A stretch of 64,000 bases of DNA from an uncultured Phycisphaerales bacterium (GTDB lineage Bacteria; Planctomycetota; Phycisphaerae; Tepidisphaerales; Tepidisphaeraceae), in contig CAWJPJ010000006.1 in assembly GCA_963844715.1 (NCBI GenBank), forward strand, positions 160,001 to 224,000, written 5' to 3'. Positions within the stretch are counted from its first letter, which is position 1. Each line of letters starts with the position of its first letter. This document shows positions 1,308-10,435 of the stretch, piece by piece. The notes below the pieces were generated by a model, which had not been told where the DNA came from, did no database searches, and saw nothing but the letters and a program-made list of their open reading frames with translations. A program made the translations under genes and the position numbers.

Positions 1308-1559
1308 ATGCCAAGCCCAAAATCATCAGTCAGGTCAGCCAAGAGTCCCGAGAAGCCCAAGACGATCCAGCGGACCTACCGCTTTGACACAAAGTTGTTT
1401 GAAGCTTTCGAGGACGACTGCGCCACTCATCTCGCCAACCCCAAGCGCGTCATTGAAGCGCTAATCCTGTATTGGCTGGACGCCGACGCCGACGAACGCG
1501 CGGCGATGGCCCACAAACATCGGGAACGGATTGGCTCTGGATCGCGGGAAGAAGATTAA
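1308..1559 (+). CDS. Small putative ribbon-helix-helix-like regulator, divergent from xis/int
   Basis: 83 aa. KTIQRTYRFD strand followed by two helices. TAAAAT at 1296-1301, 6 nt before the ATG. Confidence 0.5.
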   Translation: MPSPKSSVRSAKSPEKPKTIQRTYRFDTKLFEAFEDDCATHLANPKRVIEALILYWLDADADERAAMAHKHRERIGSGSREED

Positions 1560-1757
1560 TTTTTCGGCGGCACAGACTTTTCCGCACCCACCTCATGGCG
1601 GACGGCTTCACGCGGACGGGGCGGCGGTCAATCTGGATCGCCCGGAGGGATTTTCCCGCGCAGCGGGAGGGAGATTGACGGCCGCCCGGGCCGCGTACAA
1701 TCGAGCCACGAGGTGGGGGCGGGATTTCGGACTTCGGTTCAGGAATTTACTACAGGT

Positions 1758-2753
1758 TCACGCTGCTCCGCCCATCAAGCGATCCAACGGACTGGTCACC
1801 GCAATCGCCGGTTTATTCATCACGTGCGTATAGATCATCGTCGTCTCCAGGCGCTGATGGCCCAGAAGTGTTTGTACTTGTCTGATGTCATAGCCGGATT
1901 CCAGCAAATGGGTGGCAAAACTGTGCCGAAACGTGTGCGGCGTCACTCGCTTGCCAATTTGCGCTCGGATCGTCGCTTGTTTGACCGTTCGGGACAGGAC
2001 GCCGGGGTGCGCGTGCCAGCGATACCCTTTGCCCGATTCGTCCCTTCGCAACGTGATGCTCGGAAACAAGAATTGCCATCGCCAGTCGTCCTCAGCATAG
2101 GGGCATTTGTTCTGTAAGACAGCCGGCAACGGCACGTATCCACCGCCGTGGGCCAGGTCGCGCTCGTGTCGCCGGCGCGCCCGCCGTGCCTGTTCCACCA
2201 GCCGGCTTCGCAGCGACAGTGGCAACATGACGATCCGGTCTTTATCCCCTTTGCCCGAGTGAATCAAAATCTGCTGCCGATCAAAATCCACGTCGCGCAA
2301 GCGCAACGTGCAGCATTCCATCACGCGCAGCCCCGTGCCATACATCAATTCCACCATCAGCCGATGCATCGACTGGGGCCGCATGATTTCAATGAGTTGC
2401 TGCACTTCATGCTGGCTTAACACCGCCGGAAGCCGCACCGGCCGGCGCGAACGCTCGGCGGCGAACCGCCCCAGGTGATCCGGCTCCACTTCATCCGCCA
2501 ACACTTGCTTATACAGAAACACAATCGCGTTAACCGCCTGGTTCTGACTGGACGCGCTCAATTGCCGGTCGCGTGCCAGCGCGGTCAAAAATGCTTCCAC
2601 CTCCACCGTCCCCAGCTCCGCCGGATGTCGCCAATGACCTTCCCGGCAATGATACGCCAAAAACTCACGTACCCACCGGCGATAACATTCGATGGTAGAG
2701 GCGGCCAAATGCTTGCGAGTTCCCACGTCGCTTACCCGATCCAAAAGCTTCAT
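1758..2753 (-). CDS. intI: Integron integrase
   Basis: Tyrosine recombinase motifs (YGTGLRVME, GKGDKDR, HTFRHSFATHLL, LGH..LETTMIYTHV) plus the IntI-specific insertion (GGGYVPLP...K.P....WRWQFLFP). Divergent from an attC array. Confidence 0.97.
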   Translation of the reverse strand: MKLLDRVSDVGTRKHLAASTIECYRRWVREFLAYHCREGHWRHPAELGTVEVEAFLTALARDRQLSASSQNQAVNAIVFLYKQVLADEVEPDHLGRFAAERSRRPVRLPAVLSQHEVQQLIEIMRPQSMHRLMVELMYGTGLRVMECCTLRLRDVDFDRQQILIHSGKGDKDRIVMLPLSLRSRLVEQARRARRRHERDLAHGGGYVPLPAVLQNKCPYAEDDWRWQFLFPSITLRRDESGKGYRWHAHPGVLSRTVKQATIRAQIGKRVTPHTFRHSFATHLLESGYDIRQVQTLLGHQRLETTMIYTHVMNKPAIAVTSPLDRLMGGAA

Positions 2754-2763
2754 ATATTGTCCT

Positions 2764-2834
2764 AACCTAGCGCAAGAAACCGTGGTGTCAATATTTCCGA
2801 GGTTTGTTGACAGGCGTGAAACAATTGGCAAAAT
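2764..2834. promoter_or_regulatory. Back-to-back putative PintI and Pc promoters
   Basis: Minus strand TTGACA (2791-2786)-N16-TAGGTT (2769-2764) facing intI. Plus strand TTGACA (2807-2812)-N16-CAAAAT (2829-2834) with a TG extension, facing the cassettes. Confidence 0.55.
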
Positions 2835-2874
2835 CAGACAAGCGTGGATGGCTGCAAAGAGTGTTCTTTGTACC

Positions 2875-2900
2875 ATTGCGCGAGAGAATCATAGTTATAC
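2875..2900 (+). other. attI site (core G/TTATAC at 2894-2900)
   Basis: GTTATAC is the exact reverse complement of the R'' of the first attC (GTATAAC, 3173-3179), as expected for a cassette inserted at attI. Left boundary approximate. Confidence 0.8.
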
Positions 2901-2910
2901 GGCAGAAAAC

Positions 2911-3162
2911 ATGACGCCCGCCGACGAAGGAGAAATGCACCGTCTCTGCAAGTTGCTCGGCACCGTCGACAAGACGCTGCCGACCTCTTCACCGCTCCGA
3001 GAGGCGCTCGAGAAGGCTGCCTTCGCCATCCAGGCCTCATTCATTCATGGCCATAGGAATTGGGTGGAAAGCATGTACACTGCGCTGCACGACCCGAATA
3101 CGGAACTGTCAGCTGAGCATCGGGCACATCTCGTTAGCCTCGGTATCGACCCCGACGCGTGA
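2911..3162 (+). CDS. Cassette 1 hypothetical protein (83 aa)
   Basis: Single ORF filling the interval between attI and attC1. Confidence 0.75.
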   Translation: MTPADEGEMHRLCKLLGTVDKTLPTSSPLREALEKAAFAIQASFIHGHRNWVESMYTALHDPNTELSAEHRAHLVSLGIDPDA

Positions 3163-3172
3163 CGCGGCTGCC

Positions 3173-3282
3173 GTATAACCAGCCGCTGCTGTGGACCGGC
3201 CCGCGTCGCGGCGGTATGCTCTTCTAGTCCTTGTGCCTGCACGCGCGTCGCGTTGCCGGCCACAGAGCGTCGTCCGTTATCC
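3173..3282 (+). repeat. attC1
   Basis: GTATAAC-CAGCC-GCT[G]CTGT-GG[A]CCGGC...GCCGGCC-ACAGAGC-GTCGTCC-GTTATCC: imperfect hairpin with two extrahelical bases. Confidence 0.92.
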
Positions 3283-3294
3283 GCCGCAGCAACC

Positions 3295-3630
3295 GTGGCA
3301 ACAATCGTCATCCAACTCGATCCAGCGCTCCTCGCGAATCCGGATGCCGACATTCGCTACAAGCTTCCCGACCTCCTCGCGCAACGGTCGGCGAACCGGG
3401 TTTCTAGCGACGGATACGATTACGTCGGCGAGCGAAATCTGCTCCATTTGTTTCTCGGAACCGACAACGCTGAACGCGATCTGCCTGGCATTATCGAGGT
3501 GCTCAAGTCTGAACGGCTTCTAGGCAATGATCTTTCGCAGGTTCCGATCGCTTTCGAAGATGGCGATGCCCTTCGTGTAGTCTATCCGCCCGGTTTCACA
3601 GGCGTCTTCGAGCAGTCGGGCGGCGGATAA
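3295..3630 (+). CDS. Cassette 2 hypothetical protein, possibly immunity-type
   Basis: GTG start, 111 aa, stop inside the attC2 R''. NPDADIRY.LP...DGYDY motif. Confidence 0.7.
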   Translation: MATIVIQLDPALLANPDADIRYKLPDLLAQRSANRVSSDGYDYVGERNLLHLFLGTDNAERDLPGIIEVLKSERLLGNDLSQVPIAFEDGDALRVVYPPGFTGVFEQSGGG

Positions 3631-3733
3631 CCAGCCGTTGCTGTGGACGGGCCCGCGTCGCGAATATATTCTCTTTTAATCTGGCGGTTGTCAGCGCGTC
3701 GCGTTGCCCGCCACAGAACGTCATCCGTTATCC
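3625..3733 (+). repeat. attC2
   Basis: GGATAAC...GTTATCC, same arm architecture as attC1. Confidence 0.92.
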
Positions 3734-3737
3734 GCCC

Positions 3738-4034
3738 ATGACGCAGTCTGACTACTTAAGCATGCCGCAGAACCAGCCCCACCTACGGGTAATGGCCGTT
3801 CTCCGTCGCTGGGATCCGATCGGTGTTATCTCCGACGCGAACCAGGACGAATACGACAGCTATTCAGTAGAAATAGTTCACATGCTTGATCGCGGTGCGT
3901 CGGTGGATGACATTGTTGCATACATGAAGCGGGCGGTAACCGATCACATGGGCATGAGTTTTTTCGACGAGCCGCACAGCCGCGATTGCGCGGAAGAGTT
4001 GGTCAACTACTGGCGGTCCCTAAAGGGCGGATAA
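3738..4034 (+). CDS. Cassette 3 protein, DUF1871-like
   Basis: LRRWDPIGV...DEYDSY motif. Stop inside the attC3 R''. Confidence 0.65.
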   Translation: MTQSDYLSMPQNQPHLRVMAVLRRWDPIGVISDANQDEYDSYSVEIVHMLDRGASVDDIVAYMKRAVTDHMGMSFFDEPHSRDCAEELVNYWRSLKGG

Positions 4035-4138
4035 CCAGCCGTTGCTGTGGACGGGCCCGCGTCGCGTCGATAGTCTTTCTTTCATCTGGCGGTTGTCAGC
4101 GCGTCGCGTTGCCCGCCACAGAACGTCATCCGTTATGC
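4029..4138 (+). repeat. attC3
   Basis: GGATAAC...GTTATGC. Arms nearly identical to attC2. Confidence 0.92.
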
Positions 4139-4141
4139 AAC

Positions 4142-4405
4142 ATGACACGCACCTCGGACGAACTTGAGTTCTACTACAACGGAGAGCCGGTGGGCTACTT
4201 CCAGGAAAACGCTTTTCCGTCGGGTCCATGCCGAGCGAGGTATATGCCCTATCGCGGTTCGGGCCATTATCACATGTCCACAGATCTGCGGTCCGGGATC
4301 AAACCACGGTGTACCAGCCCCACGTTCTCATTTTCCGTGTTGGCTTGTCCAGAGTATGGCGTGTTAGAACTCGCTGACTTCACAGCGGTCGGGAATGTTG
4401 CATAA
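4142..4405 (+). CDS. Cassette 4 hypothetical protein (87 aa)
   Basis: ATG 3 nt after the attC3 core; stop in the attC4 R''. Confidence 0.7.
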   Translation: MTRTSDELEFYYNGEPVGYFQENAFPSGPCRARYMPYRGSGHYHMSTDLRSGIKPRCTSPTFSFSVLACPEYGVLELADFTAVGNVA

Positions 4406-4509
4406 CCAGCCAATGCTGTGGACGGCCCCGCGTCGCGTCGAAAGTTTGTCTTTGGTATAGTGTTCCTCGGCGCGTCGCGTTGGCCGCCACAGATTGTCAT
4501 CCGTTATTC
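4400..4509 (+). repeat. attC4
   Basis: GCATAAC...GTTATTC. Nearly identical to attC6. Confidence 0.92.
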
Positions 4510-4531
4510 GGCCTTAAGAATCGGAGCACCG

Positions 4532-4702
4532 GTGAGCGCTTCTCGAAAAAAACTTTGCGTTCTGGCGGCATGTTCATTCGCTGTCGTCGGCGCCATCGAG
4601 TTAGTTCGAAGCCAGTTGGTTGGCGGCTTGTGTACCCTCTTGCTTGCGTTAGTTTTTCTTTTGCTCGTATATACGCCGGGGCAACACGATCAGGCCGAAT
4701 AA
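4532..4702 (+). CDS. Cassette 5 small two-TM membrane protein (56 aa)
   Basis: GGAG RBS then GTG; two hydrophobic segments; stop in the attC5 R''. Confidence 0.65.
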   Translation: MSASRKKLCVLAACSFAVVGAIELVRSQLVGGLCTLLLALVFLLLVYTPGQHDQAE

Positions 4703-4806
4703 CCAGCCGCTGCTGTGGACCGGCCCGCGTCGCGTCTGTATGCTGTTCTACTCCTGGGCCCGCCGCGCGCGTCGCGTTGCCGGCCACAGAGCGTCGTCCG
4801 TTATGC
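4697..4806 (+). repeat. attC5
   Basis: GAATAAC...GTTATGC. Arms match attC1. Confidence 0.92.
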
Positions 4807-5246
4807 CTCGCATCACCGACACCCTCGCACGGGCGGGCAGCGATTGGAAGGCGTTCGAGGCCCCGCTTGACGCCGACGTGATCGCGGAGGCGCTCGTCCT
4901 TATCGCCCGACCGCTCCCCACCGGCCTGATCGAGCTCTATCACAGCTGCAACGGAGGCGAGGGATCGCTGCCGGTTCAGCCGCTGAACTTCGTCCTCTGG
5001 AACCTCGAATTGGTCGTCCAGACCCGCGAGGATCAGCACTACCGCAAGTATTACGACCAATTTGTCTTCTTCGGCACCAACGGTGGCGGCGAGTATTTTG
5101 GAGTTGACCCGCCAGGGCGCGTCTTCTTCATGGATCCGGTAGCGGGCGAGGAAAGTATTGCCATTGTGGCGGCGACGTTCGATGAGTTCGCGGCGCTCGT
5201 CGGCACTCCCCCGCCGGAAGAGTTTCCGCCGCCCGGCGAGGCATAA
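4803..5246 (+). CDS. Cassette 6 SMI1/KNR4 (SUKH) family immunity-type protein
   Basis: LP..LIELY..CNGGEG and FFGTNGGGEYFG motifs, and TFDEF near the C-terminus. ATG lies inside the attC5 core. Confidence 0.85.
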   Translation: MPRITDTLARAGSDWKAFEAPLDADVIAEALVLIARPLPTGLIELYHSCNGGEGSLPVQPLNFVLWNLELVVQTREDQHYRKYYDQFVFFGTNGGGEYFGVDPPGRVFFMDPVAGEESIAIVAATFDEFAALVGTPPPEEFPPPGEA

Positions 5247-5350
5247 CCAGCCAATGCTGTGGACGGCCCCGCGTCGCGTTGAAAACTTGTCTTTGGTATA
5301 GTGTTCCTCGGCGCGTCGCGTTGGCCGCCACAGATTGTCATCCGTTATGC
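5241..5350 (+). repeat. attC6
   Basis: GCATAAC...GTTATGC. Nearly identical to attC4. Confidence 0.92.
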
Positions 5351-5427
5351 GGCGCGAGGCCACCAACATGCGAATCGTTCAGAAAGCGGCGTTTCTCGCG
5401 GCGATCTGCTGGATGACGGCCACCTTT

Positions 5428-6240
5428 TCAAACCACAACGGTCACACGTAAGAAAGTGGCGGGAATGATCGTGGCGTTCTTATTCGGGCTCTTGTTGTGC
5501 TGCTCGAACAGAGTCTCCAATTCCTTTTGGAGATCGGCCGCTCGACCTTTCTGGCCGGCCGCATCGAATGCATTCATGGTCGGTCCGTAGTATTTTCGGA
5601 AATCATCAACATACGCGGCCGGACTGCTGGCAGAATTGAATGTAAAGGTGTCCCGGACGCACGAAACCTTTTCTTTGGGAACTCCCGCAGCTGCGAATCG
5701 CTCCACGACATGGCTCTCAACGCCCCAGGTCATGGGGCTGACGAAGCCTTCCGGCGGCGGCGGGATGTAGGCGGAACTGATCCTCAAAATCTGCGACACC
5801 AGCGTTGGATCGTTCGGAATCCAATTTCCCATGACAATTCGCCCCCCGGGACGCGTCACTCGCACCATTTCCCTTGTCACATCAAACGGTTTGGGCGCAA
5901 ACATCGCTCCAAAAATGCTGACGACGAGGTCAAAGGAATGATCCTTCAACTCGTGTAAATGGGTTGCATCCCCTTCTTGAAACCGGCAGTTGGCCAGACC
6001 GTGCTTCTTGGCGCGCTGGTTTCCAGCCGCGACGAGATTGCTGGCAATGTCAACGCCCAACACGTCTGCACCGAGCTTTGCCTCCGGCAAAGCGGTCGTT
6101 CCGTCGCCGCATCCGAGATCCAGAACCTTGAGCCCTTTTACGATTCCCAGCTGCTGGACAAAGGCTTCGCCGCTTTCCCTCATGCTCTGGGCAATGCGCG
6201 TAAAGTCGCCTTTTTCCCAAAGTGCTTTATTTGGATTCAT
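5428..6240 (-). CDS. Class I SAM-dependent methyltransferase
   Basis: VLDLGCGDG motif I, GVDI, EGDA, SFDLVVSIFGAMF. Confidence 0.9.
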   Translation of the reverse strand: MNPNKALWEKGDFTRIAQSMRESGEAFVQQLGIVKGLKVLDLGCGDGTTALPEAKLGADVLGVDIASNLVAAGNQRAKKHGLANCRFQEGDATHLHELKDHSFDLVVSIFGAMFAPKPFDVTREMVRVTRPGGRIVMGNWIPNDPTLVSQILRISSAYIPPPPEGFVSPMTWGVESHVVERFAAAGVPKEKVSCVRDTFTFNSASSPAAYVDDFRKYYGPTMNAFDAAGQKGRAADLQKELETLFEQHNKSPNKNATIIPATFLRVTVVV

Positions 6241-6312: not shown

Positions 6313-6828
6313 TTATCTATCAGACAGGCTGGTAGGATCAATTGCCGGGGCCTCTACCGTCGAATGCCTTCGCACTGAAGCACCATCGTACTGCGATTTT
6401 CCGGGTGGTTTAGGCGATTCCTGCGTCGGCGCCGGGTCCATTACGGATCGCCGGTTACGGCGATTGGTCGCCAGCGCATCCAGGAAAATTTCAAATCGGT
6501 TGGCGGCGCTGGCCCACGCTGCATCCTTGTGTTCCGGCCTGACCGCCGGCGTGTGGCGAAGGAACGTGCGCACAAACATCGCCAACATCTCCCGGACCAG
6601 CTCATGCTGTGTCTGTTGATCCTCGTGCATCTTCACCAGCCGATTGAAGCAGCGATCCATGGCTTTGAGCAATGTTTGCTCCTGCTTCTCCCGGTATTCA
6701 GACATCAGCGCTTGGCGGGCCGCATCCACAACGACTGAGCCAAGGGACGATCTGGTTAGCGAAGCCTGCACCTTGATGACCTTGAGCAACTCGTCGTCTA
6801 GCCGGATTGTGAGGGGATACTTGTCCAT
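6313..6828 (-). CDS. CopG/RHH-family protein of the Tn4371-like conjugation module
   Basis: MDKYPLTIRLDDELL N-terminal RHH; C-terminal 'EMLAMFVRTFL..TP.V......A...A..RF..F' typical of this family. ATG overlaps the relaxase stop. Confidence 0.75.
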   Translation of the reverse strand: MDKYPLTIRLDDELLKVIKVQASLTRSSLGSVVVDAARQALMSEYREKQEQTLLKAMDRCFNRLVKMHEDQQTQHELVREMLAMFVRTFLRHTPAVRPEHKDAAWASAANRFEIFLDALATNRRNRRSVMDPAPTQESPKPPGKSQYDGASVRRHSTVEAPAIDPTSLSDR

Positions 6829-8369
6829 CAAAGTTCCTGGCCCATGTCCAAATCGCGACCCTGTTCCAACGTGACATTGTTCACGTCCGTCATTCCGGCT
6901 AGCCGCCTCCCGGTCTGCTTGCTTGCCCATGAACTTCTCGAAGTCGGCAACATCAACTTCATAGTCGCCGCCCTCGGCATGGGTGATTCCGGTGCCGGGC
7001 TTGCTGGGCCCATGACTCAACCAAACGCTCGGCCTTGTCCGCCATGTCGCGCGCCCGATCCGATGTCACGTCATCGCCGGCGCGGTCGAGCAGGTTGTCG
7101 AGATGCCTGGTCGGGGAGTAAATCCCGTCGTTGGCTTTGGCCTGCTCGACGATCTCCTGCGCAATCTCCCGGCGCTCCTGCGCCGCTCGGCCAAGCTCCG
7201 CCACGTTCCCGATGCTCAAGGATTGATACGCCTCGCCGTCCTGGACGCGCGCATAGCGCATCGCTCCGGCCTCCTCCCGGATGACAACAAAGCGCCGGTC
7301 GGTGATCTCATCGATCCGCCCCAAGGCGACCACTTCACCAGATACGGCCTGGGTAATCGGCTCCCTCGACACATACATGGACTGGTTCCCCAGGTGTCCG
7401 TATAGCTGCTTAATGATGTCATGGTGCGCGCCAAGGTCCATCAACTGCTGCTTGAAGTCGGGTTCAAGCTGCCACTTGGTTCCCTGAATCTTCTCGGCCA
7501 GTTCCATGCTTTCCAGCCATTGCAGGCGCGCAATCACCAGCGGCCTGTCGGACCTTCTCCAGCCGATCTGGACATCAGGCGACACGTCGATGACGTGCTT
7601 CTCGTCCATGTTGCGCTCGATGGTCCGGTCCAATGATGTGAACCGCTCCGCCTGCACTTCCTTCTCTCGGGCCTGCTCCATCTCCCTTTCTGTGCGCTCC
7701 CCAAGCAGGTCGGTTGCCGCCTCGGACGCCCTTTGCCGGATGCCGTAACCGATGTATTCCCGGCGCAGGATCAGGTCTTGACCCTGTTCGTCCTTGCCCC
7801 GGAACAGGATGTGCGCGTGCGGATTGTCGGTGTTGTGGTGCTCAATCGCGATCCAGTCTAGCTTAGTGCCGACATCGCGCTCGATGCGCTGCATCACGTC
7901 ACGCACATAGGCGCGCATGTCGGCGATCTCATACCCCTTCTCCGGCGACAGGATGAGTCGGAAGTGGTGCCGATCCTCCTCCCATTCCCGTGTCACGGAT
8001 CGACCATCCAACTTGTCTTGCTGTGCATCGAAGAACGTGCCGCGCTCCCCATCCTTGCTGGCGCTGTCGCGGGCAAGGTAGCCCGTATGGCGCGCAAGCC
8101 CGCTGCCAGACCTGCGCGAATGGAAGCGGGATAGCATCTTGACCGTCGCCCGTTGTGCGCGGATTGCTGCCGAAAGGCATGGTCCCGCGCCCCTGAACCC
8201 GCCTCGGCGCGCGCCATCTGCGCATCTTGGTGCGCCAGAACCCTCGCCCGAGCCGCATAGCGATCTCCCCGTTGACGCTCCGCTCGCGCCCTCTGCGCCC
8301 GCCTGTGCGCCCGATACGATCCGAATCAACGCCGTCTCTTGAATTCGACCGACTTACACGTTTTGCCAT
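6828..8369 (-). CDS. VirD2/MOBP-type relaxase (RlxS/DUF3363-like), with frameshifts
   Basis: RHTGYLARD (catalytic Tyr), DRHHFRLILSPE, HHNTDNPHAH (HUH), REYIGYGIR.RA, ERFTSLD. Indels near 8157 and 6900-6995. Confidence 0.85.
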
Positions 8370-8442
8370 GACACCGCTCCCGAAGTTGAAAGCCAGCAAT
8401 CACTTACGCCTCCAACGCTGACAAACCCACTTGCCAAAATGC

Positions 8443-8510
8443 GGGTGATTCGCCAGAAGTGGTTGTAATTGCTACAGATACGAAACACCTGAATCACCCC
8501 TTTATCTTGC
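8443..8510. other. Candidate oriT
   Basis: 9-bp inverted repeat GGGTGATTC (8443-8451)/GAATCACCC (8491-8499), followed by TATCTTGC, which resembles the MOBP nick consensus YATCCTG/Y. Directly upstream of the relaxase. Confidence 0.55.
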
Positions 8511-8724
8511 ATTCCACTTTCAATATATAAATCTTACCGTTCAAACCCATTGCTATGCTCAAAGGCGATTATACCTAACGGGAGCCTAACGTCAAGTGGG
8601 GGGGAATTCATGGTGACATTGACGTCACAAATCGGCATGAACAGACAAGTTTTGGTCGTTGATGAAGAGCTAAGCGTTGGCTGAACTGCTTTGACGATAT
8701 GCCTGCATTGAGGTCGTGGCGGAC

Positions 8725-9686
8725 TTAAAGAAGCTCTTGAAGTTCCACCAAACGGGCCAGCACTTCCGCCCATGACGGGTATGGTCCATAGCACAACATC
8801 CGGCATTGTGCCTCATACTCGGCACCGATGATCGCGGCCAATTCGACGGGCGGGAACAGGGCATCACTGCGCGAGAAACGCATGTCGTTGGGGTAAAAAT
8901 AGCTCTTGGGGAAGTGCGTGCGGCTGATTTTGTCGTAGTCGGTCTTAATGATTTCGTACTCGTCAGACCGCAACATGGCCATCACATCGGGTTGAGCCGA
9001 CAGTTGGAATAGGTCGTAATAATGGCGCGCATAGCTGCCGATTGGTTGCCGGTCGCGCTTGAGCAACTCCACCTTACTGTGAATGGCGAACATTTTCTCA
9101 ACAAACGTCCGCCGGAAGTGGAGCAATCGGAGCGGAAATTGACCCTCGTCTTCCGCCCCAGCGACAAGCCTTTTTCTTCCAGAAACCGACCGACATAGGA
9201 CTGCAACTCAACAATCGTTGTTGGTTCTCGCCCGCTGGCTGTACCAGACTCGACAAGCACTCGATTGGCAACTTCACCAGGACCGCCAAAGCGTTGTGTG
9301 TAAGAGAACCGGTCGCTGCGCCCGAATCCCCCGATCTTTTTGCTCTCGTTATCGACGAACGTCAGCGCCGGATGCGCGCCGATTGCGTCCCGCAGTTGCT
9401 TTAGTTCCCGGTCAATCCCCCGCTTGCCAAGCGCTGGCTCGAATGCTGTGGGATCTAAGAAGATATCGATGTCCTCGGAAAATCGTTGGATCAGGTTCCA
9501 CCCTTTGGCCAGGCTGGTGCCGCCCTTGAAGGTGACTTTGTCGCCAGCGGTGATGGCAATGATCCGCAGGGCTTCGGTGACGTAGTAATCTTTTTCGACG
9601 ATGGCTGGGCGCAGTCCTCGGTCGCGGAAATACTCCGTCGCTTGGATGATCGCCTGCTCGAAATCGGCATGTTCAAACAGCCTCAT
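8725..9686 (-). CDS. AbiEii/AbiGii nucleotidyltransferase toxin (type IV TA), frameshift near 9150
   Basis: VEKDYYV, FKGGTSL.KG..I.RFSEDID, RTFVEK, RHYYDL motifs. Confidence 0.92.
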
Positions 9687-9687
9687 G

Positions 9688-10435
9688 TCAACGGCGCTCC
9701 TTGGCCTGCCATTGGCGAGCGTATTTCAATCCAGCCAACATGCCAAAGTCGAACCGGGAAAATGGATTCAGCGATTCCCGCAACCGCAGTAGTGCTGCTG
9801 GGTTCTTTCCAAGCTGCTGTCCGATGGCGCCCAACATCGCGCGAACTCGTGGGGGTTCTGAATCCGCCACGTTCAGTAAGCGCTCGAACCGGACTTGTTC
9901 GGATGCCAGCGTCAAAGTTCGACGGACTGTATCTGCCGGCGATAGCTCGCTTGCCTTTCCGCGTTGGCGCAGGAAATCAAGCAACGCCGCGTCGGTTTTG
10001 GAAAGATTGGCCCAAGCTTCCGGTCGCCGGCTATGGATTACGGTATTGGCGCCAATCAGCTTTCTGGGCAGACTGATGCGCACTGGTGGCAACCTCGCTG
10101 TGTGCCGCAATCTGTGTCGTGAATCCCAGGAGATTGGCGGCGGCAAGCCCTGATGGATAAACCTTTGTGCGCGTCGCTGCGAGGGTTTGCATTGCGGCCG
10201 GATTTGGCCGGCTCTTTCCCAAGGCGGTTTGTCGGTGGCGGTAATAGACACCTTTGCTCAATCGCTCAAGCATTCCCTTACGCGTCAATCGGGACAGGGC
10301 CTGTGCCGCAGCGGCAAACGGAAGATCCCGGAAATCGTCCAATCGCCATACTCGTTCGCCTCCACGCTCAATCCGTTGCCGAATGGCGGTGGCTGCGCCC
10401 TTTGAACCGATTGCGGCGGTGGGGAATGACTCCAT
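9688..10435 (-). CDS. AbiEi-type antitoxin (DUF6088-like), frameshift near 10078
   Basis: N-terminal wHTH (ALSRL.RKG.LERLSKGVYY), then SG..AANLLGFTTQ. Immediately upstream of AbiEii. Confidence 0.85.

Follow-up and report, generated by a model that had tools for sequence, protein, structure and literature searches.

Putative sigma70 promoter elements in the attC loops of an integron from an uncultured Phycisphaerales bacterium

Integron cassettes, as the standard model is presented in PMC11023631 and PMC8946536, are promoterless and become expressed only when they lie near the platform promoter Pc. The integron of the present study, located in a stretch of 64,000 nucleotides (the window), raises the question whether the recombination sites themselves could contribute to expression. 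A first-pass annotation had claimed this for all six attC sites: TGGAC(C/G) in the left arm and a TAnnnT hexamer in the loop were read as -35 and -10 boxes in four of them and an extended -10 was noted in the other two, and the resulting built-in promoters would drive the next cassette and remove the positional gradient. The answer bears on the expression of distant cassettes and of clusters without integrase, and on the reasons for which both are kept. A promoter in a recombination site would express every cassette after such a site and would move with each shuffle; it would suit cargo in need of standing expression such as the SUKH immunity-type gene of cassette 6.

Integron platform, cassettes and attC sites

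The locus (Table 1) comprises an IntI-family tyrosine recombinase, an attI adjoining intI and six plus-strand ORFs, each closed by an attC. An intI-facing TTG-type -35 with a similar -10 is present in 9 of 10 related loci, and seven of the ten (L002, L003, L004, L005, L011, L012 and L013) carry TTGAC(A/T) and a -10-like hexamer without T-12 at the position of the Pc candidate. The platform similarity to L002 and L003 stops at 2897-2898, i.e. within the attI core. Repeat and attC searches of the window revealed no further attC after attC6, and the short ORF that follows is possibly a truncated seventh cassette; Rfam gave no match anywhere in the window. Of 150 related cassette proteins scanned, 24 had any Pfam match, and six of these are immunity-type by name.

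Table 1. Features of the integron (positions in the window)
Feature	Position	Strand	Details
intI, integron integrase, 331 aa	1758..2753	-	TIGR02249, 370.6 bits (cut-off 265); Phage_integrase (Pfam)
Pint candidate TTGACA-16-TAGGTT	2764..2791	-	sequence reading
Pc candidate TTGACA-16-CAAAAT with TG extension	2807..2834	+	promoter scan
attI core GTTATAC	2894..2900	+	sequence reading
Cassette 1 ORF, 83 aa	2911..3162	+	no family; reading frame, family search
attC1	3173..3282	+	stem hexamer 3192-3197; -10 TATGCT 3215-3220 with G-14; predicted start ~3226
Cassette 2 ORF, 111 aa	3295..3630	+	GTG start assumed; no family
attC2	3625..3733	+	-10 TATTCT 3667-3672; predicted start ~3678
Cassette 3 ORF, 98 aa	3738..4034	+	no family over cut-off
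attC3	4029..4138	+	-10 TAGTCT 4071-4076 with G-14; predicted start ~4084
Cassette 4 ORF, 87 aa	4142..4405	+	no family
attC4	4400..4509	+	broken proximal box AAGTTT 4442-4447; distal extended -10 TGG-TATAGT 4453-4461; predicted start ~4469
Cassette 5 ORF, 56 aa, hydrophobic	4532..4702	+	no family
attC5	4697..4806	+	-10 TATGCT 4739-4744; predicted start ~4750
Cassette 6 ORF, 147 aa	4803..5246	+	SMI1/KNR4 (SUKH) immunity-type protein; PF09346, E 6e-9
attC6	5241..5350	+	broken proximal box AAACTT 5283-5288; distal extended -10 TGG-TATAGT 5294-5302; predicted start ~5310
27-codon ORF 3' of attC6	5368..5451	+	without closing attC; sequence reading

The attC sites, 109-110 bp each, feature R'' (RYYYAAC) and R' (GTTRRRY) cores with exact AAC and GTT triplets and flanking letters partly off consensus, paired L''/L' boxes and an unpaired central spacer. 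The extrahelical bases of the bottom strand are a T (corresponding to the A of TGGAC) and a C, 6 bp apart, and in all six sites the fold of the bottom strand is the more stable one, by 1.5-3.5 kcal/mol. The elements of the first-pass annotation were recovered exactly where it had placed them, namely TGGACC-17-TATGCT in attC1 (3192-3220) and attC5 (4716-4744), TGGACG-17-TATTCT in attC2 (3644-3672; TATATT overlaps this box 2 nt earlier), TGGACG-17-TAGTCT in attC3 (4048-4076) and an extended -10, TGGTATAGT, in attC4 (4453-4461) and attC6 (5294-5302). A generic sigma70 scan (rule: at least 9 of 12 matches) reports none of the six window sites. The sites form three similar pairs (attC1/5, attC2/3 and attC4/6) and are not independent; chance was therefore tested on homologues instead. 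Across many arrays the same attC types flank different genes.

The TAnnnT box in the attC loop

An attC caller relaxed to admit an 8-nt right spacer returned 508 raw calls compared to 142 on reversed controls, and GAC and TAAC filters were therefore added. Eighty new metagenome attCs were fetched by a pattern confined to the left arm; 74 of them contain TAnnnT within the loop, compared to 38.6 expected from loop-only shuffles, and in 34 (4.5 expected) it stands 16-18 nt after TGGACN. Among 281 attCs collected blind to the loop the motif is present on the top strand in 176 (50.4 expected) and on the bottom strand in 43 (27.4 expected), and at the level of sequence clusters in 16 of 28 (5.5 expected); the attC sites are related, so that these counts overstate independence. 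In a ranking of 832 gapped motifs TA...T came ninth, after A-rich motifs. The box lies 10-11, 16-18, 22 or 31 nt from the stem hexamer; it also occurs in five sister subfamilies, where the offset differs and the strand is the sense strand. These offsets resemble helical phasing (~10.5, 21 and 31.5), with four modes only.

The distribution of the box is uneven. Subfamilies 12, 15, 16, 17 and 18 are without it (6/95, 12.7 expected), attCs from other phyla show no TAnnnT excess (6/42 vs 8.4), and a phylum-wide pattern search matched 8 of 401 genomes, mostly with other attC types and too few to be used. Arrays with at least four attCs combine box-bearing and boxless sites in 22 of 25 cases; arrays without intI show no significant box excess (75/111 vs 51/89, p 0.14).

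Could TAnnnT occur by chance in an inherited T-rich loop, a result of the pyrimidine skew of attC top strands that is described in PMC5027507? The loop is indeed 45% T, the sites share ancestry, and T-rich masks were also high-scoring in the anchoring control. The tree argues otherwise. Within the clade, TAnnnT was retained in 126 of 129 attCs, with both boxes absent in the other three, and across the 58 clade sites with the proximal box position only parsimony required a single change each at T-12, A-11 and T-7 compared to 10-21 at each of the 19 remaining columns. When neutral evolution was simulated on this tree, with identical anchoring, the loop composition and a rate matched to the middle columns, it yielded 8.8, 16.7 and 9.1 changes at -12, -11 and -7 and left 14 of 58 boxes intact, whereas 55 are observed, a number that no replicate reached at rates x1-x3. 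Totals from anchored parsimony (2/2/7 vs 33/27/48) are biased by the anchoring, and the simulation is therefore the test we rely on. The proximal box is intact in the same 55 of 58 sites without a distal box but in only 16 of 71 with one, being broken in the 55 remaining sites that bear a second box 31 nt in (attC4/6 type); the tips are related, so that Fisher's p for this contrast is not relied on, and a single event may account for most of the T-12 loss in the attC4/6 lineage. Such reciprocal decay, the four different offsets and the conservation of A-11 against the skew add to the loop-only shuffles, and the simulation largely refutes the neutral reading, which we consider extremely improbable. 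Purifying selection acts on the -10 box and follows the pattern of a sigma70 -10 element, with T-12, A-11 and T-7 kept over the middle bases.

Selection on the box need not mean selection for transcription. Pairing does not force it, since its mean pairing is low (0.12-0.46 for proximal and 0.01-0.34 for distal boxes) and the mirror AnnnTA is found in just 2 of 71 sites. Stop codons were considered as its cause and rejected, as TATGCT, TATAAT and TACAAT contain none. TAnnnT could be the site of another protein, or an RNA or single-strand element, that merely resembles a -10: T-5 is fairly conserved in some subfamilies yet is no host promoter feature, and the host has 27 sigma-region-4 matches, so that other specificities exist. 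In the largest group, however, T-5 changes 10 times and just -12, -11 and -7 stand out. Conservation of these three positions is the known sigma70 pattern, and the TG and G-14 extensions considered below are also consistent with sigma70, which makes this alternative very unlikely.

The box might also be selected for recombination, if sigma70 holoenzyme melted or supercoiled the long loop and thereby helped or hindered extrusion of the attC hairpin. Extrusion requires loop melting and depends on supercoiling, and transcription is named as a possible influence (PMC8946536, PMC5027507); the loops are long, and in each of the seven subfamilies the bubble is predicted within the loop or next to it. 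The bubble is, however, not centred on the dyad (subfamily medians of -8 to +8.5 nt). Melting would work in both directions, whereas at every offset it is chiefly the sense strand that shows the excess. Boxless subfamilies occur in the same arrays as box-bearing ones and are thus evidently mobile. We regard a role in extrusion as unlikely.

The stem hexamer and promoters of the host

The host encodes a canonical RpoD, and promoters of the form TTGAC-16/18-TAnnnT occur in its genome. Regions 2-4 of its RpoD align with solved sigma70/SigA; the match to TIGR02393 scores 333.8 bits, under the cut-off of 354, since the alignment ends near the C-terminal end of region 4. TTGAC at spacings of 16, 17 and 18 nt from TAnnnT was counted 15, 24 and 12 times, compared to ~1-2 expected. 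The host promoter model was anchored on TAnnnT, a free two-box EM having drifted to a meaningless motif. CarD gave a single match, inside a 772-aa frame taken as Mfd.

In this setting the part of the earlier claim that concerns the -10 has stood, as the box lies mostly in the unpaired loop, exceeds chance, is selected and faces the next cassette; the assignment of TGGAC as its -35 has not. TGG and CN of the stem hexamer are paired (probability 0.90-0.95), the A is extrahelical (0.08), and the first base changes in step with the right arm (TGG/CCA 87, CGG/CCG 66). The hexamer is kept at -10 offsets of 10, 17, 22 and 31 nt and in boxless sites, whereas TTGAC occurs in just 1 of 281 attCs. On the host -35 model TGGACC/G scores ~0.3 bits compared to 6.6 for TTGACA, with G at position 2 at 0.01, and over 66 proximal sites no -35 resembling the host consensus emerged at 16-18 nt (median best score 0.13 bits). 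The combination TGGAC.-17-TAnnnT shows no enrichment in front of host genes (3 vs 1.8).

A stronger reading, with TGGAC as a genuine -35, a complete bipartite promoter in every attC and no positional gradient left from Pc, is nevertheless worth stating. Spacers in proximal-only sites (15 nt, 4; 16 nt, 9; 17 nt, 29; 18 nt, 12; 19 nt, 1) centre where those of the host do (0.29, 0.49 and 0.22 for 16, 17 and 18 nt), host upstream regions show a modest excess of TGGAC at 16-18 nt (13 vs 5.0), and class 1 PcW uses TGGACA (PMC2791841). The TG extension, moreover, is scarce where TGGAC stands at 16-18 nt and nearly fixed elsewhere: it is present in 10 of 71 proximal sites compared to 50 of 55 distal and 33 of 38 subfamily-21 sites. 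Against this stand the stem role of the hexamer and its indifference to the box, and the spacer could be inherited along with stem length. The gradient itself would probably remain, given the conserved TTGACA of the Pc candidate and a PcW that is ~25-fold weaker than PcS (PMC2791841). We thus judge the full bipartite reading unlikely.

Other promoter features vary between sites. G-14 is found in 181 of 218 sites; subfamilies 9, 13 and 14 lack TG (0/50), and 9 and 13 are also without a good -35. The middle triplet of the box matches host preferences weakly (r 0.26, p 0.42 raw), and the purine-initiator test on proximal sites is weak (48/66 vs 39.1 expected). An ECF-type promoter for the boxless subfamilies is unsupported, as neither candidate motif, ECF-type GT...TC or TGTGATTC, is enriched 5' of host genes. 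In three metatranscriptome runs 5-7% of words were present, and at 85% likeness these gave contigs of relatives only, not informative on starts or strand. Among the matches listed, nine RNA-library pieces fall on attCs: three span the whole site, three start in the left arm, two start in the loop or right arm and one ends there.

Proposed function and known systems

We propose, from the sequence patterns above, that attC loops probably serve as weak internal sigma70 promoters that provide basal expression of downstream cassettes on top of Pc. RNA polymerase would open the DNA at the attC loop and start 6-8 nt further on. The cassette mRNA would begin in the attC right arm and lack the left arm, and the full attC hairpin could therefore not form in it; predicted leaders have -18 to -24 kcal/mol, compared to -45 to -51 kcal/mol for whole attC RNA. 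The TGGAC of the stem would add little, at most as much as the poor -35 of PcW, and sites without TGGAC at 16-18 nt would often rely on the TG extension. Since the promoter would serve whichever cassette adjoins, shuffling would alter expression, and neither arrays distant from Pc nor those lacking intI would be silent. In an excised circle the modelled attC promoter has the correct geometry toward its own ORF; the double-strandedness of excised cassettes is given as not known in the Fig. 1 legend of PMC5027507.

More tentatively, attC may be a dual-use element, with arms for the IntI hairpin and a loop in which a sigma70 promoter is repeatedly re-made, and array expression may be a mosaic by attC type. 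If this were true, box-bearing and boxless attCs would be on and off linkers along arrays, including arrays without integrase or Pc; for these integrons the silent-reservoir model would be superseded, and other lineages with long attC loops may follow the same pattern.

For attC promoters the literature searched yielded just single-site precedents. One is in Vibrio sp. DAT722 (Michael and Labbate 2010, PMC2945992), where a sigma70-type promoter overlapping the attC between cassettes 20 and 21 likewise drives the next cassette. Its -35 is described as common to other attCs of the array and its -10 as belonging to the downstream cassette and unique in the array, whereas here the -10 lies wholly in the attC loop, moves with the upstream cassette and is selected across the attC family. 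Gene-less promoter cassettes of Vibrionaceae superintegrons (Blanco et al., bioRxiv 10.1101/2023.11.21.568050, PMC11014356) also give Pc-independent transcription within arrays, but these are dedicated cassettes, while our predicted box is in the recombination site of gene-bearing ones; the starts mapped inside an attC of cassette F2 in that work are scattered and were suspected of being spurious. Group IIC-attC introns (Leon et al. 2010, PMC3001079) place an outward promoter at the attC position and express the next cassette independently of Pc; that promoter comes from an inserted intron which blocks Pc read-through, and no insertion is present in this integron.

The architecture itself is that of class 1 PcW, TGGACA-17-TAAGCT, which is weak but works in E. 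coli (Jove et al. 2010, PMC2791841), and in PcW-TGN-10 of the same study TG raises activity 15-fold, rescuing the poor -35. PcW is described as one platform promoter inside intI1 under protein-code constraint, whereas many predicted copies under hairpin-geometry constraint occur here. The attCs of chromosomal integrons with long variable terminal structures (Nivina et al. 2016, PMC5027507) likewise have R and L boxes, two extrahelical bases 6 bp apart, a more stable bottom strand and a pyrimidine-rich top loop; the L'' extrahelical base of the bottom strand is C here instead of the usual G. In that account the loop is constrained just by length, folding and skew, in contrast to the sequence-specific motif found here.

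The integron locus and its attC homologues

A complete integron, comprising intI, attI and six cassettes each ended by an attC of 109-110 bp, lies within a region of mobility genes. The sixth cassette encodes an SMI1/KNR4 protein, and profile searches with the other five cassette proteins returned no family above cut-off. The nearest integrases are found in records titled Phycisphaerales, Phycisphaerae, Tepidisphaeraceae and Planctomycetota, plus one titled Methylococcaceae, and on this basis a Phycisphaerae planctomycete is assumed as host. The DNA of the intI platform is 93-96% identical to two related loci, L002 and L003, whose cassettes differ; in L002 the match also takes in the neighbouring phage-type integrase region (89%) and a portion of the relaxase region. 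Such sharing suggests that the integron is carried on a mobile element. A tRNA-Leu gene begins about 440 nt ahead of the window.

Features of the integron locus (window positions) and features elsewhere in the source genome (G000, contigs C5 and C6)
Feature	Position	Strand	Remarks
Flanks	1-1559, 6313-10251		phage-type integrase, HTH_17 excisionase-like and ribbon-helix-helix-like genes; VirD2/MobA-like relaxase with DUF3363; AbiEii-like gene in two overlapping ORFs
intI platform	1355-2898		
Promoter-like TTGACG-15-TACAAT	1675-1701	+	just beyond intI 3' end, antisense into intI
Complete integron	1758-5350		
intI	1758-2753	-	TIGR02249, 370.6 bits (cut-off 265)
Pc candidate	2807-2834		conserved in 7/10 relatives
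attI core GTTATAC	2894-2900		similarity to two near-identical platforms stops here
rpoD frame	G000:C5:52665-53309 (L260)		alignment to solved sigma factors ends at region 4 end, then unrelated sequence
Second attC cluster	G000:C5:367900-372200		six divergent attCs; no intI match on this contig
Dense tRNA array	G000:C6:952600-956000		~24 tRNA genes

The first-pass annotation had read sigma70-like promoters of the form TGGAC(C/G)-17-TAnnnT into four of the attCs and an extended -10 into attC4 and attC6. Its motifs are in place in all six sites, none of which is reported by a generic promoter scan. Because the six attCs fall into three similar pairs, chance cannot be judged from them, and homologues were therefore gathered without use of the loop. 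Of the family's 141 genomes, 51 had matches to an arm-only pattern; 80 regions around part of the listed matches were fetched and Planctomycetota-titled integrase loci were added. A structural attC caller made 508 calls before filtering, and 142 on reversed controls; filtering left 287 unique sites and 281 stringent ones. Metagenomes scanned with the left arm alone supplied a second set: 122 matches (30 truncated), 82 of them unique and 80 new.

A -10 box in the attC loop

The box in the attC loop is a real feature. Top-strand TAnnnT occurs in 176 of the 281 sites against 50.4 expected from shuffles, and bottom-strand TAnnnT in 43 against 27.4; most members carry the box in 16 of 28 sequence clusters (5.5 expected). 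The enrichment over shuffled loops that a promoter reading predicts is borne out in the metagenome set, where 34/80 new sites have TAnnnT 16-18 nt after TGGACN compared with 4.5 in loop-only shuffles. However, TA...T ranks only 9th among 832 gapped motifs, behind A-rich ones, and five subfamilies are without the box (6/95). Among 42 attC-like sites of other phyla (12 loci) it shows no excess (6 against 8.4 expected), and two of these six positives, both in L004, are of the same attC types as the family's own sites. Phycisphaerae-family attC types are found in this locus, whose record is titled Methylococcaceae, and in L010, whose record is titled Pirellulaceae; L004 has the box, as does one site of L010. 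Either transfer between lineages or mis-binned contigs may lie behind this. In the second attC cluster of the source genome all six sites show, by eye, TAnnnT 17, 17, 17, 18, 22 or 11 nt after TGGACN. The boxless subfamilies 15-18 (e.g. L012, L133, L160) have a conserved CGGTCC 9-11 nt past the left-arm GGACCG, and in subfamilies 17 and 18 its columns change 0-2 times each; this internal inverted repeat could rival the main stem or serve as an operator.

The sigma70 -10 pattern has T-12, A-11 and T-7 fixed and the middle free. In the window's clade of 129 sites (four were dropped, two as not attC-like and two with internal duplications), the proximal box, about 17 nt after TGGACN, is kept in 55 of the 58 sites that lack a distal box. 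Parsimony gives 1, 1 and 1 changes at -12, -11 and -7 of these 58 sites, while the middle bases change 18, 19 and 16 times and the whole set of 19 other columns 10-21 times each. As each site was anchored at whichever of five offsets matched best, neutral inheritance of the box had to be simulated with the same anchoring, on the same tree and with the base composition of the loop (45% T; no indels). At the middle-column rate 14/58 boxes stayed intact, with 8.8/16.7/9.1 changes at -12/-11/-7, and at rates from x1 to x3 not one replicate in 200 reached 55. Neutral inheritance is therefore rejected and, judged from these substitution patterns, the -10 box is under selection.

The box had been placed in an unconstrained part of the hairpin, and this agrees with a mean pairing in the recombinogenic strand of 0.12-0.46 (proximal) and 0.01-0.34 (distal). 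Since it is mostly unpaired and has a mirror partner in only 2/71, the box is not forced by the hairpin. Selection for loop melting as an aid to hairpin extrusion is plausible, as extrusion requires melting and depends on supercoiling (PMC8946536), but the bubble is displaced from the dyad by -8 to +8.5 nt according to subfamily and the box excess is mainly sense-strand. Binding of the box by another protein is possible.

attC4 and attC6 had been described as a subtype lacking the box. Their TGG-TATAGT, 31 nt in (the distal box), is confirmed, but the proximal box is present in broken form: sister sites have TAGTTT at this offset where attC4 and attC6 have AAGTTT and AAACTT. The proximal box survives in only 16/71 sites with a distal box, where T-12 has undergone 11 changes; 3/129 clade sites have neither box and 5/80 new metagenome sites have both, as intermediates. 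Proximal loss may largely go back to a single ancestral event with later drift. Elsewhere the box lies at 10-11 nt (subfamilies 13, 14, 9), 16 nt (24) or 22 nt (21). By this comparison, the retained feature is some -10 within the loop, oriented downstream.

The TGGAC hexamer and host promoters

TGGAC is not supported as a -35. TGG and CN are paired (0.90-0.95) and the A (0.08) corresponds to the bottom strand's conserved extrahelical T. That the hexamer may be forced by the hairpin, also suggested in the first-pass annotation, is supported by covariation of its first base with the right arm (TGG/CCA 87, CGG/CCG 66). TGGAC-type hexamers are present at all box offsets and in boxless sites, TTGAC in 1/281 sites, and a host-derived -35 model gives TGGACC/G about 0.3 bits versus 6.6 for TTGACA. 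By their sequences, host promoters are of the ordinary type. A count over 2095 upstream regions gave 15/24/12 cases of TTGAC.-16/17/18-TAnnnT, where shuffles contain about 1-2 of each, and regions 2-4 of RpoD can be aligned to solved sigma70 and SigA. The run-on of the rpoD frame is probably an assembly frameshift.

PcW, the weak Pc variant of class 1 integrons, is TGGACA-17-TAAGCT; it is weakly active and increased 15-fold by TG (PMC2791841). By analogy, some role for TGGAC is possible; the full promoter form of the first-pass annotation is unlikely. TG precedes 50/55 distal and 33/38 subfamily-21 boxes, but 10/71 proximal ones, and G-14 occurs in 181/218 boxes. Neither TG nor a good -35 is present in subfamilies 9 and 13, which the promoter model leaves unaccounted for.

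Putative attC promoters and known systems

We consider it likely that these attC loops are working promoters in one form or the other, and probable that they are of the -10-driven form. The sigma70 holoenzyme would melt the duplex at the loop and start about 6-8 nt past T-7. Pyrimidine-purine steps at 3226, 3678, 4084, 4469, 4750 and 5310 are candidate starts and match the previously predicted ones to within 1 nt; the initiator test is weak at proximal sites (48/66 against 39.1 expected). Three RNA libraries yielded contigs of relatives only. The leader of the mRNA would come from the right arm and measure 52-68 nt, with a predicted fold of -18 to -24 kcal/mol versus -45 to -51 for the whole attC RNA. 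Each attC would drive the downstream neighbour of its cassette, and the first cassette would rely on Pc, the main integron promoter. Once a cassette is excised as a circle, its box would lie ahead of its own gene, provided that the circle is duplex, a point described as not known in PMC5027507. Box-bearing and boxless attCs are mixed in 22/25 arrays with four or more sites. Given this mixture and the conserved Pc candidate, a basal floor and mosaic expression are expected, not the loss of gradient originally proposed. Boxes are not significantly more frequent in arrays that lack intI (75/111 versus 51/89, p 0.14).

The Pc candidate and its equivalents in the related loci L002-L013 have a near-perfect TTGACA and no T-12 (CAAAAT, CATCGT, GATAAT, GATGAT, GACAAT). 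The attC boxes are the reverse, with a poor -35 and a fixed T-12. Our search, with subscription papers and supplements outside it, found no published attC family with a selected -10 in the loop. Earlier reports describe a single promoter that spans an attC and has a unique -10 (PMC2945992), dispersed starts in one attC (bioRxiv 2023.11.21.568050), and promoters carried by cassettes (PMC8876359) or introns (PMC3001079); in mobile-integron cassettes, secondary promoters and attCs were found to have little effect (PMC11511950). Internal array promoters are already known as single cases; a selected -10 that is re-made within the recombination site across a whole family did not appear in the literature searched.
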